A stretch of DNA of 64,000 nt from Escherichia phage ECML-4: sequence record JX128257; one strand, given 5' to 3'. The translations under genes were made by a program, and so were the position numbers. Of this stretch, positions 56,178 through 58,913 are shown in pieces. The notes below the pieces were generated by a model. The model searched no databases, was not told the DNA's origin, and saw only the letters and a list, made by a program, of their open reading frames with translations. Within the stretch, counting starts at the first letter, position 1; each line of letters begins with the position of its first letter.

Positions 56178-56633
56178 ATGAGTGAAACAAAATTTGAAAC
56201 AATGAAGACCGAAGATATAATCGCGGAATTAGATCCTCTTATTTCGGTGAATCCTGAAGACATGAATTTAGACCAAATATCATTGAAAATTGGTCGTTCA
56301 TGGATGGCTGTCCAGCGCCATTACATTCGTGAAGGGCGTTATCTAGAATTTTTGACAGGAAAATTCCGTCAAATCGATCTTTATTTACGTCGGTATTATG
56401 CAGGGGAATTACCACCCAATATTTATGTCGAACGTCCCCTGAAAGTTCGCCCCCTGAAATCTGATATAGACGTTTGGGTAAAGGCTGATGACGATTACAT
56501 TGAGTTATCGAGCATGTTGCAAGAACAAAAAGCCAAAGTAAAATTAATCGAAAGTAGTTTAGAACGTTTGAATAAACTCGGCTATGAAGTGAAAAATGCG
56601 ATTGATTGGCGAAAATACTTGGACGGCATGTGA
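56178..56633 (+). CDS. possible recombination mediator (UvsY-like, tentative)
   Basis: Size (151 aa), position upstream of UvsW-like helicase, and weak resemblance (YYAG ... KLGYEVK vs T4 UvsY YYSG ... KSRGFAIK). Confidence 0.35.
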   Translation: MSETKFETMKTEDIIAELDPLISVNPEDMNLDQISLKIGRSWMAVQRHYIREGRYLEFLTGKFRQIDLYLRRYYAGELPPNIYVERPLKVRPLKSDIDVWVKADDDYIELSSMLQEQKAKVKLIESSLERLNKLGYEVKNAIDWRKYLDGM

Positions 56634-57379
56634 TGGTTTCCCTGCAGGCTTTGCGTAAACTCAATGATTTTGAGAACCGCCATTACACATTTCAGCAGTA
56701 TGCCTTGCCCTTTAAGGAACTGACTTGTGTAACAACGGAAAACGGACGCCATTATGTGTCTCCAACAGGCGTCAAACTCACATCTGTAACAACGATGTTG
56801 GGGCGTACCGGAGATCATACATGGTTAGAAGCCTGGCGGGACAAGTTAGGACACGAAGCCGCCGATATCGAAACAGAGCGTTGCGCAGACCGTGGGGAAA
56901 AACTTCATTTGGCCTGTGAATTATATCTCAAAAACAGGCCGATGAAGGAAGTGTTAGAAGCCGCAGGGGAATACGTGTTTATGTTTAAACAGGTCTTCCC
57001 CTACCTGAACAAAATGAGCAAGATATACGCGCAGGAGATTCCGTTATATAGCGAAGTCCTTGGTCTTGCTGGTCGTGTTGATCTCATCGGCGTTTACGAG
57101 GGAATCCCTAGCATTATCGATTTCAAAACATCCAACACCCTGAAAACTCGGAGCATGATAGAAGATTACAGCATTCAACTATGCCTGTACTCAGTCATGT
57201 TTCAACAGATGTTTAATGTTAAGATCGAACGTTTGGTCAATATTATATCTAACGAAAATTCTCTTGTCCCGACTATAATCGAATTTAATCGAAAAGACGT
57301 TATTTCTAAAATGTTTGATCGTGTTCGCCTGTATCATAAAATGGATAAAGAACAGAACGGGATCTGGGCGGATCGCTAA
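56633..57379 (+). CDS. putative PD-(D/E)xK nuclease
   Basis: VDLIGVYEG ... IIDFKTS resembles the D ... (D/E)xK core of RecB/Cas4-type nucleases; ATGTGATGG overlap with upstream stop. Confidence 0.4.
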   Translation: MVSLQALRKLNDFENRHYTFQQYALPFKELTCVTTENGRHYVSPTGVKLTSVTTMLGRTGDHTWLEAWRDKLGHEAADIETERCADRGEKLHLACELYLKNRPMKEVLEAAGEYVFMFKQVFPYLNKMSKIYAQEIPLYSEVLGLAGRVDLIGVYEGIPSIIDFKTSNTLKTRSMIEDYSIQLCLYSVMFQQMFNVKIERLVNIISNENSLVPTIIEFNRKDVISKMFDRVRLYHKMDKEQNGIWADR

Positions 57380-57407
57380 ATACTCCATAATATTGGGGGA
57401 ATTAGTG

Positions 57408-58913
57408 ATGTCAGAAATTCAAATAATCAAAGTTAACGAAGTGCGCATGCGAATCTTGGCGGAAGACTATATCCGCGAAGAACTCAATGATTACTTCAAA
57501 TTTGAAGATCCTAATTTCCAACCGAATCCCTTCAGTAAATGGGATGGCGTGGTACGCTTGTTCACAAAGAGTTCTGGCCTTATAGACATCGGTCTGTTGT
57601 TTGAGGTGTTTAAGTTCTGTAAGATGAATGGTTACACCATCAAATTAGATCCCGCCTTAAAATATATCCAAGATATACCAGACGAAGAGATACATACATT
57701 TATCAATTCCCTGAACGCTGTTTACCGTGATGAAAACAAGCAATACCAAATCGCAACAGTGCGCGACTATCAATTCGACTCAGTGGCCACAGCAATACGC
57801 CAATCCAGATGCGTGCTAGAAGCGGCTACGAGCGCGGGTAAATCGTTTATTTTGTACATCATGGCGCGTTACTACAGGCAACGCAGAGAGGCACTGGAAA
57901 GCAATCTCAAGACGTTGATCGTTGTACCTTCCATTCACTTGGTGACTCAGTTGTATGACAACTTTGAGGAATACAGCCATGGCACAAATTGGAATACCAT
58001 GATGAATGTCCAGATGATATGTGAAGGTGCAACAAAGGATATATTCAAGCCCATAGTCATTTCCACTTGGCAGGGTATTCAGAATCAGCCCAAAGAATGG
58101 TTCCATCAATTTGGGGATATTGTTGTCGACGAAGTGCACACATCTAAATCTGAAAAGCTATCTTATATCCTGAACAACTGCATTAATGCTGACCAAAGAT
58201 TGGGAGTAACCGGAACCCTCGCGAATACAAAGGTTGCAGGGTTGCAGGTCGTTGCCCATTTTGGAGCATACCATAAAATTATTACAGCACGTGATTTAAT
58301 AAATCTTGGTTATGCCGCAGATATCCATGTCAACATGATTGAAGTCATACATCCCATGGCGGATTGTATAGAAATGCATGGTGCTGAGTACCAAAAGGAA
58401 ATAGAATTCCTCATAGCGAATGAACGTCGAAACGAGTTAATAGCCAGAATGGCATTGTCTTTGAAAGGTAACGTGGCCGTTATGTTCGAACGCATTGACG
58501 CCCATATGATGATTGTTTATGAAATGCTTTCAGCCGTTAAGAAAAACGTATTTGTCATTAACGGCGAAGTTAAGACAGAAGTTCGTAAACAAATTCAGGC
58601 AGCGATGGAAGAGGGCGAAGATATAACACTGCTGGCATCTTATGGGACCATGCAACAGGGAGTGTCGATCAAAAAACTTCATCATTTGATATTGGCACAC
58701 CCGAGTAAATCCTATATTCGTGTCATACAGACTTTAGGGCGTCTCATGCGCCAGCACTCTTCAAAGGATGTCGCCAAGATCTGGGATTTAGTAGACAACT
58801 TGCGTTACAAAGGATTTTCGTACAACCATGCCCTCAGACATTCGCATGAGAGATATAAATTTTATCTTATGGAGCGACACCCTGTACAAATGAAGAAAGT
58901 GTCGCTCCAGTAA
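57408..58913 (+). CDS. DNA helicase UvsW-like (SF2)
   Basis: Walker A AATSAGKS, DEVH box (VVDEVHTS), and C-terminal NLHHLILAHPSKSYIRVIQTLGRLMRQHSSKDVAKIWDLVDN parallel to T4 UvsW. Confidence 0.8.
   Translation: MSEIQIIKVNEVRMRILAEDYIREELNDYFKFEDPNFQPNPFSKWDGVVRLFTKSSGLIDIGLLFEVFKFCKMNGYTIKLDPALKYIQDIPDEEIHTFINSLNAVYRDENKQYQIATVRDYQFDSVATAIRQSRCVLEAATSAGKSFILYIMARYYRQRREALESNLKTLIVVPSIHLVTQLYDNFEEYSHGTNWNTMMNVQMICEGATKDIFKPIVISTWQGIQNQPKEWFHQFGDIVVDEVHTSKSEKLSYILNNCINADQRLGVTGTLANTKVAGLQVVAHFGAYHKIITARDLINLGYAADIHVNMIEVIHPMADCIEMHGAEYQKEIEFLIANERRNELIARMALSLKGNVAVMFERIDAHMMIVYEMLSAVKKNVFVINGEVKTEVRKQIQAAMEEGEDITLLASYGTMQQGVSIKKLHHLILAHPSKSYIRVIQTLGRLMRQHSSKDVAKIWDLVDNLRYKGFSYNHALRHSHERYKFYLMERHPVQMKKVSLQ

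Follow-up and report, generated by a model that had tools for sequence, protein, structure and literature searches.

Kuttervirus phages of the family Ackermannviridae carry a standard, already annotated recombination/replication cluster with the gene order uvsY-exonuclease-uvsW. In Salmonella phage Vi01 (NC_015296), this cluster comprises Vi01_139c, Vi01_138c and Vi01_137c, which RefSeq labels as a UvsY-like recombination mediator (Vi01_139c), an exonuclease and a DNA helicase. Bacteriophage T4 also has uvsY and uvsW as neighbors, although there the two genes are convergent (uvsW on the plus strand, uvsY on the minus strand), and what lies between them is not a nuclease gene but a pair of small ORFs, uvsY.-1 and uvsY.-2. 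A third point of comparison is the human mitochondrial exonuclease MGME1 (Ddk1/C20orf72; PDB 5zyu, 5zyt and 8xa9), which is reported to be a monomer with a preference for ssDNA (PMC6237815), has a single-strand-selective arch, slides in both directions on ssDNA and removes 5' flaps (PMC11040146). MGME1 is also described as helping to degrade mtDNA fragments (PMC6584726). The grouping of phage exonucleases with MGME1 has been noted previously (Szczesny et al. 2013).

The window, i.e. the whole 64,000-nt stretch of DNA analyzed here, is a Kuttervirus genome with 99.9% identity to Escherichia phage Sa157lw. The relevant features are as follows:

56141-56150, plus strand: TTATAATACA element, located 29 nt before the start codon of uvsY; tentatively, a possible -10-like promoter element
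56178-56633, plus strand: uvsY, 151 aa; UvsY-family recombination mediator (ORF list, PF11056 and phrog_231)
56631-56635, plus strand: TGATG overlap of the uvsY stop (TGA, 56631-56633) and the nuclease start (ATG, 56633-56635)
56633-57379, plus strand: nuclease gene, 248 aa; stand-alone MGME1-family PD-(D/E)xK nuclease of the RecB type (PF12705, phrog_298 and predicted fold)
57408-58913, plus strand: uvsW, 501 aa; SF2 DNA helicase of the UvsW family (UvsW_N, ResIII and Helicase_C)

The nuclease ORF is listed from a TTG start (56606-57379, plus strand) and that of uvsW as 57315-58913 (plus strand); the lengths of 248 and 501 aa are counted from the ATG codons at 56633 and 57408, respectively. 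The overlapping stop and start codons reported by the first-pass annotation are borne out by the sequence (...GGC ATG TGA TGG...), in which the two codons have a single base in common. The nuclease gene ends 28 nt before the uvsW start, and the ORF that follows uvsW lies on the opposite strand. A tail-completion gene flanks the cluster on one side, and sliding-clamp and clamp-loader genes flank it on the other.

A 3.7-kb query matched 223 phage records in GenBank, of which 214 cover at least 80% of it, so that the cluster is present in at least that many. Gene order and gene names agree with those of Vi01, and across Vi01, Sa157lw, CBA6 and other Kuttervirus genomes the DNA is 98.9-99.9% identical, with equal order, lengths and stop/start overlap. 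The window shows no substantive difference from the Vi01, Sa157lw and CBA6 clusters and is a further copy of a published one; the impact on annotation is small, since the cluster is annotated already in hundreds of Kuttervirus genomes. Gene order is also kept in Vibrio-infecting members of the Ackermannviridae at 45% protein identity. The earlier remark that a nuclease between UvsY and UvsW departs from the T4 arrangement is correct, but the layout is conserved across the Ackermannviridae and is not unusual.

The 151-aa protein, originally described as weakly resembling UvsY, matches the UvsY family in Pfam (PF11056; E=8.3e-10) with a score of 39.7 bits, where 22.8 is the cutoff, and the match spans profile positions 14-128 of 128; it also matches phrog_231 (E=2.6e-42). 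Pairwise alignment with T4 UvsY gives just 23% identity across 60 aa, and homology to the T4 protein is seen at the profile level; a phmmer search of the PDB with the protein returned no meaningful match. In an alignment of four sequences, Y73 and Y74 are invariant and 'LYLRRYYAG' of the window protein aligns with 'KA-RLDYYSG' of T4, with YY(A/S)G following a basic stretch in each. The T4 segment 'LKARLDYY(S)G' is described as DNA-binding. The profile matches show the protein to be a recombination-mediator homolog by sequence, and the Vi01 genome encodes homologs of UvsX and gp32; therefore, partner proteins exist for UvsY, which as a member of this family would assemble into an oligomeric ring and load UvsX onto ssDNA coated with gp32.

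Identification of the third product as a UvsW helicase holds up well. It contains the UvsW_N (PF21241), ResIII (PF04851) and Helicase_C (PF00271) domains, shares 33% identity with its T4 counterpart (E=3e-90, T4 residues 13-502 of 587) and matches the structure 2oca in the PDB (E=2.5e-78), all of which show, at the level of sequence homology, that it is an SF2 helicase related by descent to UvsW of T4. What it lacks is the UvsW.1-like domain at the C terminus of the T4 protein (~503-587), an extra region of ~85 aa; the alignment stops at T4 residue 502 and the window protein ends at 501 aa.

The middle gene product matches PF12705 (30.4 bits; cutoff 22) and the phrog_298 'exonuclease' family (E=3.2e-86), so that both the nuclease fold and the UvsY homology have profile matches above the Pfam cutoffs; for all three proteins of the cluster, the profile matches are far better than expected by chance. 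MGME1 was the top match of a phmmer search of the PDB, and a profile of the nuclease family matched human MGME1 with E=1.3e-17, the alignment running from position 39 to 232 of the 233 in the profile, while the next match had an E-value of 0.32. An AlphaFold (AF2) model of the nuclease (pLDDT 93.8) was compared with the PDB using Foldseek, in which ranks 1-9 were all MGME1 (best E 1.3e-11, TM 0.69/0.76; TM 0.63-0.69 by query and 0.69-0.84 by target over the nine matches). Weaker matches included RecE (E=2.7e-5), Cas4 (~1e-4), AddAB, Dna2 and lambda exonuclease. The protein is thereby shown, by sequence profile and predicted fold, to be a stand-alone RecB-type PD-(D/E)xK nuclease whose closest characterized relative is MGME1. 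This refines the vague label of 'exonuclease / PD-(D/E)XK protein' to 'MGME1-family ssDNA exonuclease'.

All five RecB-type motifs are present in the nuclease: the His of motif Ia, the Glu of motif I, the Asp of motif II, the D-x-K of motif III and the QhxxY of motif IV (here Q182-LCL-Y186). The 'D ... DFK' motif singled out by the first-pass annotation corresponds to D150 and D163-F164-K165 and occurs in 38/38 homologs, and H92, E135, Q182, Y186 and W68 are likewise invariant in the 38-homolog alignment. Using the family-profile alignment together with residue roles from PMC6237815 and PMC11040146, these positions were mapped to MGME1 as H92=H180, E135=E223, D150=D238, D163/K165=D251/K253, Q182..Y186=Q271..Y275 and W68=W152. 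H92, E135, D150, D163, K165, Q182 and Y186 are accordingly the predicted catalytic residues and W68 a predicted arch residue. The AF2 model has helices at residues 63-72 and 74-99, and it predicts a two-helix arch over the active site.

The phage nuclease and MGME1 thus have in common the RecB-type PD-(D/E)xK core with motifs Ia-IV, a two-helix arch that includes a sugar-stacking Trp (the phage arch being predicted), a stand-alone, single-domain architecture of similar core size, and a setting in which an RNase H1-type enzyme is also present. Identity is only ~20%, and the phage protein lacks the mitochondrial targeting sequence and long N-terminal extension of MGME1; its N terminus has a helix and a beta-hairpin specific to the phage proteins, in which R39 and Y41 are invariant. 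The C-terminal metal ligand of MGME1, Glu344, is absent. Of the four aromatic residues with which MGME1 stacks on DNA, three (F147, F173 and F266) have no counterpart at the aligned positions, which hold T63, A85 and E177, with the aromatic residues W64 and Y179 lying 1-2 residues off; given these unconserved stacking residues, substrate handling or polarity may differ from that of MGME1.

Cas4, the AddB and RecB domains, RecE and lambda exonuclease belong with the nuclease in the PD-(D/E)xK superfamily and also have the RecB-type QhxxY, but their scores fall far under those of MGME1, and the nuclease is without a four-Cys Fe-S cluster, a fused helicase or a CRISPR context. No Cys is invariant in the family alignment (38 sequences), nor is an Fe-S cysteine cluster present. 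The earlier comparison with RecB/Cas4-type nucleases holds for the RecB-type fold, but the protein is closest to MGME1 and is not a Cas4.

The nuclease family is very large and almost entirely phage-borne, with 1682 clusters (clustering at 50% identity, E<=1e-30), and the relative that has been studied most is the product of a human disease gene. A scan of cellular genomes found it almost only on marine MAG/SAG contigs, which may be binned phage, prophage or cellular. In two tblastn surveys, the nuclease query matched 377 Synechococcus and 172 Salmonella phage records, and the T4-type rnh query matched 41 Synechococcus records, with Salmonella outside its ten commonest organism names; T4 itself has a FEN-type RNase H and no MGME1-like gene evident in the organism counts of the nuclease survey. 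Homologs adjoin uvsY or uvsW in the Ackermannviridae only, and in the other phage lineages examined their neighbors are always replication genes. Cyanophage S-CAM1 has phoH-exo-gp33-..-gp32, so that exo adjoins gp33, as T4 rnh nearly does; in marine T4-like contigs the homolog lies between gp41 and DsbA/polB; and Stenotrophomonas phage YB07 has primase-RNaseH-x-exo-..-SSB.

The 'RNase H' annotated in Vi01 is a cellular-type RNase HI (PF00075). Vi01 also encodes a ligase, gp46/47, UvsX, gp32, gp59, gp41, a primase, a RuvC-like resolvase and a family B polymerase. A T4-type RNase H of the FEN family was not found in Vi01 by tblastn (best E 0.84), and a three-sequence profile of this enzyme, searched against all six-frame ORFs of complete Vi01 and the window, reached no better than E=3.9. 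The organism counts of the two tblastn surveys looked complementary, but strict non-orthologous displacement, with the MGME1-like nuclease taking the place of T4 RNase H, was ruled out, since cyanophage S-B68 and Stenotrophomonas phage YB07 carry both genes; for the same reason, the nuclease is not a simple substitute for the flap endonuclease. By sequence comparison, the MGME1-like nuclease appears to be common where no T4-type flap endonuclease can be detected in the phage, yet compatible with one.

We consider it most likely, by analogy with MGME1, that the nuclease acts in recombination-dependent replication by trimming flaps and free ends of ssDNA, and we assign a probability of roughly 60% to the whole explanation, i.e. 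a cluster of a Kuttervirus genome whose nuclease trims such ends and flaps in replication and recombination. The enzyme would clamp free ssDNA ends beneath its arch and then trim them, acting on 5' flaps or overhangs and possibly on 3' ends. The products would be nicks that can be ligated, or clean ends, both in lagging-strand maturation and in recombination-dependent replication driven by UvsX, UvsY and UvsW. In Vi01, which encodes RNase HI and a ligase and in which a T4-type RNase H/flap endonuclease was not found, the nuclease plausibly supplies flap removal beside RNase HI, as MGME1 does beside RNASEH1 in mitochondria. Alternatively, flaps could be removed by DNA polymerase I of the host. 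Since adjacency to uvsY and uvsW is confined to the Ackermannviridae, it may reflect operon history and not a shared mechanism. The family could bear on the maturation of Okazaki fragments and recombination intermediates in phages without a flap endonuclease, and might shed light on how MGME1 evolved and on the core of its mechanism.

A more far-reaching version of end and flap trimming is speculative, and we hold it only tentatively. It would make the nuclease the flap/5'-end enzyme of the Ackermannviridae and of many T4-superfamily phages, acting with RNase HI and ligase in a mitochondria-like primer removal; phages would be the source lineage of MGME1, and coupling to UvsY would tie end trimming stoichiometrically to recombinase loading. 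If true, MGME1 would be a fourth phage-derived component of the mtDNA replisome, beside POLRMT, Twinkle and POLG.

A dedicated recombination nuclease, as first suggested, is the strongest of the competing explanations, but in our judgment an unlikely one. The gene pair could form an exonuclease-mediator module like lambda Exo-Red beta or RecE-RecT, resecting the 5' strand for UvsY/UvsX loading, or the nuclease could pair with UvsW in the manner of the helicase-nucleases AddAB, RecBCD and Dna2. The overlap with the uvsY stop codon is kept at 45% protein identity, uvsW starts only 28 nt downstream and RecE is the second-best fold after MGME1, with AddAB, Dna2 and lambda exonuclease also matching, all of which favor such a role. 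However, the Foldseek similarity to MGME1 exceeds that to RecE by six orders of magnitude. Lambda Exo and RecE are ring-shaped oligomers working at dsDNA ends. MGME1 is reported to be monomeric and ssDNA-preferring (PMC6237815). A resection complex, gp46/gp47 (Rad50/Mre11-like), is already encoded, and beyond the Ackermannviridae the homolog is not found beside uvsY or uvsW.

It is less probable still that the nuclease breaks host (or broken) DNA into nucleotides for phage synthesis, as MGME1 clears linear mtDNA. The cyanophage gene adjoins phoH and thymidylate synthase (nucleotide metabolism), and MGME1 is reported to be involved in the degradation of mtDNA fragments (PMC6584726), but the neighbors in Kuttervirus and most lineages are replisome and recombination genes and not those of nucleotide salvage, the sequence bears no sign of discrimination between host and phage DNA, and an exonuclease of ssDNA ends depends on other enzymes for its substrates. 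The proposal of an anti-defense nuclease, or of a Cas4-like protein interfering with CRISPR or other host immunity, found no supporting evidence and is rejected as very improbable: weak similarities exist (phrog_1706, E=2e-10; TIGR00372, E=1e-8) and JGI labels some metagenomic homologs 'Cas4', but the TIGR00372 score is 35.3 bits against a cutoff of 65, Fe-S cysteines are not conserved in the 38-homolog alignment, and the single-copy gene holds a fixed core position among replication genes family-wide and far beyond (1682 clusters, E<=1e-30), which is a housekeeping pattern and not that of a variable counter-defense gene.

Returning to the expression of the cluster, the uvsY/nuclease overlap is kept in distant family members: Vibrio phage SD25 has TAATG, and Vibrio phage D524, where the nuclease is ~45% identical, has ATGA. 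It is a probable case of translational coupling, which probably ties synthesis of the nuclease to that of UvsY. An Rfam search of the window returned tRNAs only, and scans for sigma-70 promoters and terminators remained at background level. A T4 late promoter was also considered and discarded, as TATAAATA is present once in the 64 kb and does not occur upstream of the cluster. A -35 box at proper spacing from TTATAATACA was not found. TATAATAC occurs only five times in the window against 1.35 expected, so that it is a tentative promoter element and not clearly a general promoter. At the position of TTATAATACA upstream of uvsY, Vibrio phage D524 has CTATAATACA and Vibrio phage SD25 has CTATAACACT, and the TATAATAC motif is kept upstream of uvsY in three lineages.

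The three genes of the cluster lie exactly where the first-pass annotation had placed them, according to the ORF list:

56178-56633, + strand: uvsY-like gene, 151 aa
56633 (ATG) to 57379 (stop), + strand: nuclease gene, 248 aa
57408 (ATG) to 58913 (stop), + strand: uvsW, 501 aa

The reported overlap of stop and start codons is also present, with one base common to the uvsY TGA and the nuclease ATG in GGC ATG TGA TGG. The nuclease gene and uvsW are separated by 28 nt, which include a GGGGGA run resembling a Shine-Dalgarno sequence. A longer nuclease ORF would begin at an upstream TTG (56606). 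Since this codon has no ribosome-binding site and disagrees with both the homologue N-termini in an alignment of 38 diverse homologues and the RefSeq annotation of Salmonella phage Vi01, ATG 56633 is the likely translation start.

The cluster region shares 99.9% identity with Escherichia phage Sa157lw and about 99% with Vi01 (Ackermannviridae, Cvivirinae, Kuttervirus). Of the 223 phage records that matched a 3.7-kb query, 214 contained at least 80% of it; most belong to Salmonella, Klebsiella and Escherichia phages. The Vi01 genes carry these RefSeq labels:

Vi01_139c: UvsY-like recombination mediator
Vi01_138c: exonuclease
Vi01_137c: DNA helicase

They are flanked in Vi01 by a gp3-like tail-completion gene on one side and, on the other, by a convergent small ORF, beyond which lie the genes for gp45 (clamp), gp44/62 (clamp loader) and regA, and the layout of the window is the same. 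Vibrio-infecting members of the Ackermannviridae have the same order (tail completion, uvsY, exonuclease, helicase, clamp, clamp loader) with a nuclease that is only about 45% identical, and the stop/start overlap recurs as TAATG in Vibrio phage SD25 and ATGA in Vibrio phage D524. UvsY and UvsW have been described among the repair and recombination genes of another family member (PMC10458263). Based on the Vi01 annotation, the recurring order and overlap, and this genome paper, the uvsY-exonuclease-uvsW cluster is a conserved, already published feature of this phage family. What had been taken for an unusual arrangement is thus the normal, annotated state of a well-sampled group. It does differ from that of T4, as had been stated: T4 has uvsW (+) and uvsY (-) as convergent neighbours on either side of uvsY.-1 and uvsY.-2, whereas here the genes are co-directional with the nuclease between them. 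T4 and the Ackermannviridae thus both have uvsY and uvsW linked, but the co-directional layout with an intervening nuclease is specific to the latter.

In pairwise comparison the UvsY-like protein resembles T4 UvsY only weakly (23% over 60 residues, with an aligned YY(A/S)G segment), which accounts for the caution of the first reading; the homology is borne out by Pfam PF11056 (39.7 bits, cutoff 22.8) and PHROGs family phrog_231 (E=2.6e-42). The confident identification of UvsW holds, with 33% identity over T4 UvsW residues 13-502 (E=3e-90), a match to the T4 UvsW crystal structure 2oca (E=2.5e-78), and UvsW_N, ResIII and Helicase_C domains. The protein encoded at 57408-58913 lacks the last ~85 residues of T4 UvsW, its UvsW.1-like C-terminal region.

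The suggested PD-(D/E)xK fold of the middle protein is upheld by Pfam PDDEXK_1, whose threshold was passed, and by phrog_298 'exonuclease' (E=3.2e-86). Searched against the PDB as a single sequence, the nuclease had human MGME1 as its top match (E=0.017). A profile of the 38 homologues matched MGME1 over nearly its whole length (E=1.3e-17), followed by a Cas4-type protein (E 0.32). An AlphaFold2 model generated from the same alignment (pLDDT 93.8, pTM 0.89) was compared with the PDB using Foldseek, and the first nine matches were MGME1 chains (E 1.3e-11 to 4.4e-10; TM 0.63-0.69 by query and 0.69-0.84 by target); the next matches, weaker by five orders of magnitude, were RecE, Cas4, ACE1, Exo5, AddAB and Dna2. 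Together, the PDB matches, the family profile and the predicted fold place the nuclease in the MGME1 family. It was rejected as a Cas4, because it has no conserved cysteine and scores 35 bits against a cutoff of 65 with the Cas4 equivalog model. Residues were mapped to MGME1 numbering from the structure papers (PMC6237815, PMC11040146), with the offset verified at W152/K153 and H180:

H92 (MGME1 H180): motif Ia
E135 (MGME1 E223): motif I
D150 (MGME1 D238): motif II
D163 and K165 (MGME1 D251 and K253): motif III
Q182...Y186 (MGME1 Q271...Y275): motif IV
W68 (MGME1 W152): arch, sugar stacking

Each of these phage residues is invariant in the family alignment, whereas the base-stacking F147, F173 and F266 of MGME1 are not retained at the corresponding positions.

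Members of this very large family are stand-alone proteins of 210-260 aa; there were 2213 matches at 90% clustering and, at 50% identity, 1682 clusters with E<=1e-30 and 12921 with E<=1e-3. Among the 994 phage records with homologues are those of Kyanoviridae cyanophages, Rak2-like jumbo phages and Rhizobium phages, and matches in 'cellular' genome collections are almost all on marine MAG or SAG contigs. BFVD holds many uncharacterised viral models of the family, one of which already carries the MGME1 name. Szczesny et al. 2013 (PMC3597694) had already grouped Ddk1/MGME1 with the exonucleases of cyanobacterial and proteobacterial Caudovirales and suggested that it came from a phage, so the MGME1 connection is a refinement for this particular gene and not a discovery.

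In Synechococcus phage S-B68, the nuclease ORF (locus L016, 8528-9217) is annotated as 'exonuclease A / DexA' and is matched by the profile of the phage family (E=6.8e-54). DexA belongs to the DnaQ-type exonucleases, which are unrelated to MGME1-like nucleases, and the label looks like a propagated misannotation. A feature of Synechococcus phage S-N03 has the same label, by annotation only, the profile evidence being from S-B68.

MGME1 is described as clamping ssDNA rigidly, with an arch selective for single strands; it slides along ssDNA from either end, the arch acting as a ruler, and resolves 5' flaps with partial unwinding (PMC11040146). Because the catalytic set and the arch are conserved, the phage enzyme would share the same basic chemistry and trim free ssDNA ends and flaps in a metal-dependent reaction. 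Among the products of the complete Vi01 genome are UvsX, gp32, gp59, gp41, primase, ligase, gp46/47, a RuvC-like resolvase, DexA and a family B polymerase, as well as an RNase HI of the cellular type (PF00075). A T4-type RNase H/flap endonuclease was not found in Vi01, either by tblastn (best E 0.84) or with a profile of three such proteins against every six-frame ORF (best E 3.9; positive controls 1e-141). RNase HI plus this nuclease resembles the mitochondrial situation of RNASEH1 plus MGME1. In the other lineages examined, the homologue is always among replication genes:

Cyanophage S-CAM1: adjoins gp33, near gp32, a position close to the T4 rnh-dsbA-33-59-32 locus
Marine T4-like contigs: between gp41 and DsbA/polB
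Stenotrophomonas phage YB07 (locus L017, 4007-6026): T4-type RNase H and MGME1-like nuclease two genes apart, between primase and SSB genes

Processing of ssDNA flaps and ends, probably during lagging-strand maturation and recombination-dependent replication, fits this gene content and these neighbourhoods. Plain replacement of T4 RNase H is untenable as a rule, because S-B68 and YB07 encode both enzymes; YB07 is a natural system for learning what each does when they coexist. The conserved, probable translational coupling would also suit a dedicated recombination nuclease whose partner is UvsY, on the model of Exo/Red beta or RecE/RecT, or UvsW, on that of AddAB or Dna2. We consider this unlikely, as kinship to MGME1, reported to be a monomer preferring ssDNA (PMC6237815), is much closer, gp46/47 is present, and the nuclease gene does not adjoin uvsY or uvsW outside the Ackermannviridae. 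Host-DNA scavenging found little support and is improbable; an anti-defence or Cas4-like function, likewise with little in its favor, is more improbable still. What makes the nuclease worth attention is that its phage family, huge, uncharacterised and akin to a human mitochondrial disease gene, could easily be studied in this phage.

Generic promoter and terminator scans of the window gave background levels. The T4 late-promoter consensus TATAAATA has a single match in 64 kb (53992-53999), with about 2 expected. As the window holds most structural genes and the family encodes gp33 and gp55 homologues, late promoters of the Ackermannviridae must follow a consensus other than the T4 one. Just upstream of uvsY, Kuttervirus and two distant Vibrio Ackermannviridae share a conserved TATAAT-like element (TTATAATACA / CTATAATACA / CTATAACACT) at the same place:

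Window, 56141-56150: TTATAATACA, 29 nt upstream of uvsY
Vibrio locus L003, about 3503-3512
Vibrio locus L002, about 3509-3518

No properly spaced -35 box accompanies the element upstream of uvsY, and TTATAATACA is not clearly a general promoter motif.

A conserved 125-aa ORF (58915-59292, - strand) converges with uvsW, their stop codons 1 nt apart. It belongs to phrog_4255 (E=1.5e-57), which has no assigned function, and has no Pfam support; it may be the ORF that some GenBank records label 'clamp loader subunit'. Five tRNA genes (Ile-GAT, Ser-GCT, Tyr-GTA, Asn-GTT and Met-CAT) lie at 11600-12863 (- strand) in a stretch with few long ORFs, and no CDS is annotated in the matching Vi01 region (134830-138943). 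A SLOG-family (YAcAr, PF10686) protein and a DUF7217 protein are encoded at 53529-53996 and 54228-54956, after the capsid genes and ahead of tail completion, and their joint filing in phrog_289 'GTP-binding domain' suggests that the two are fused in some phages.
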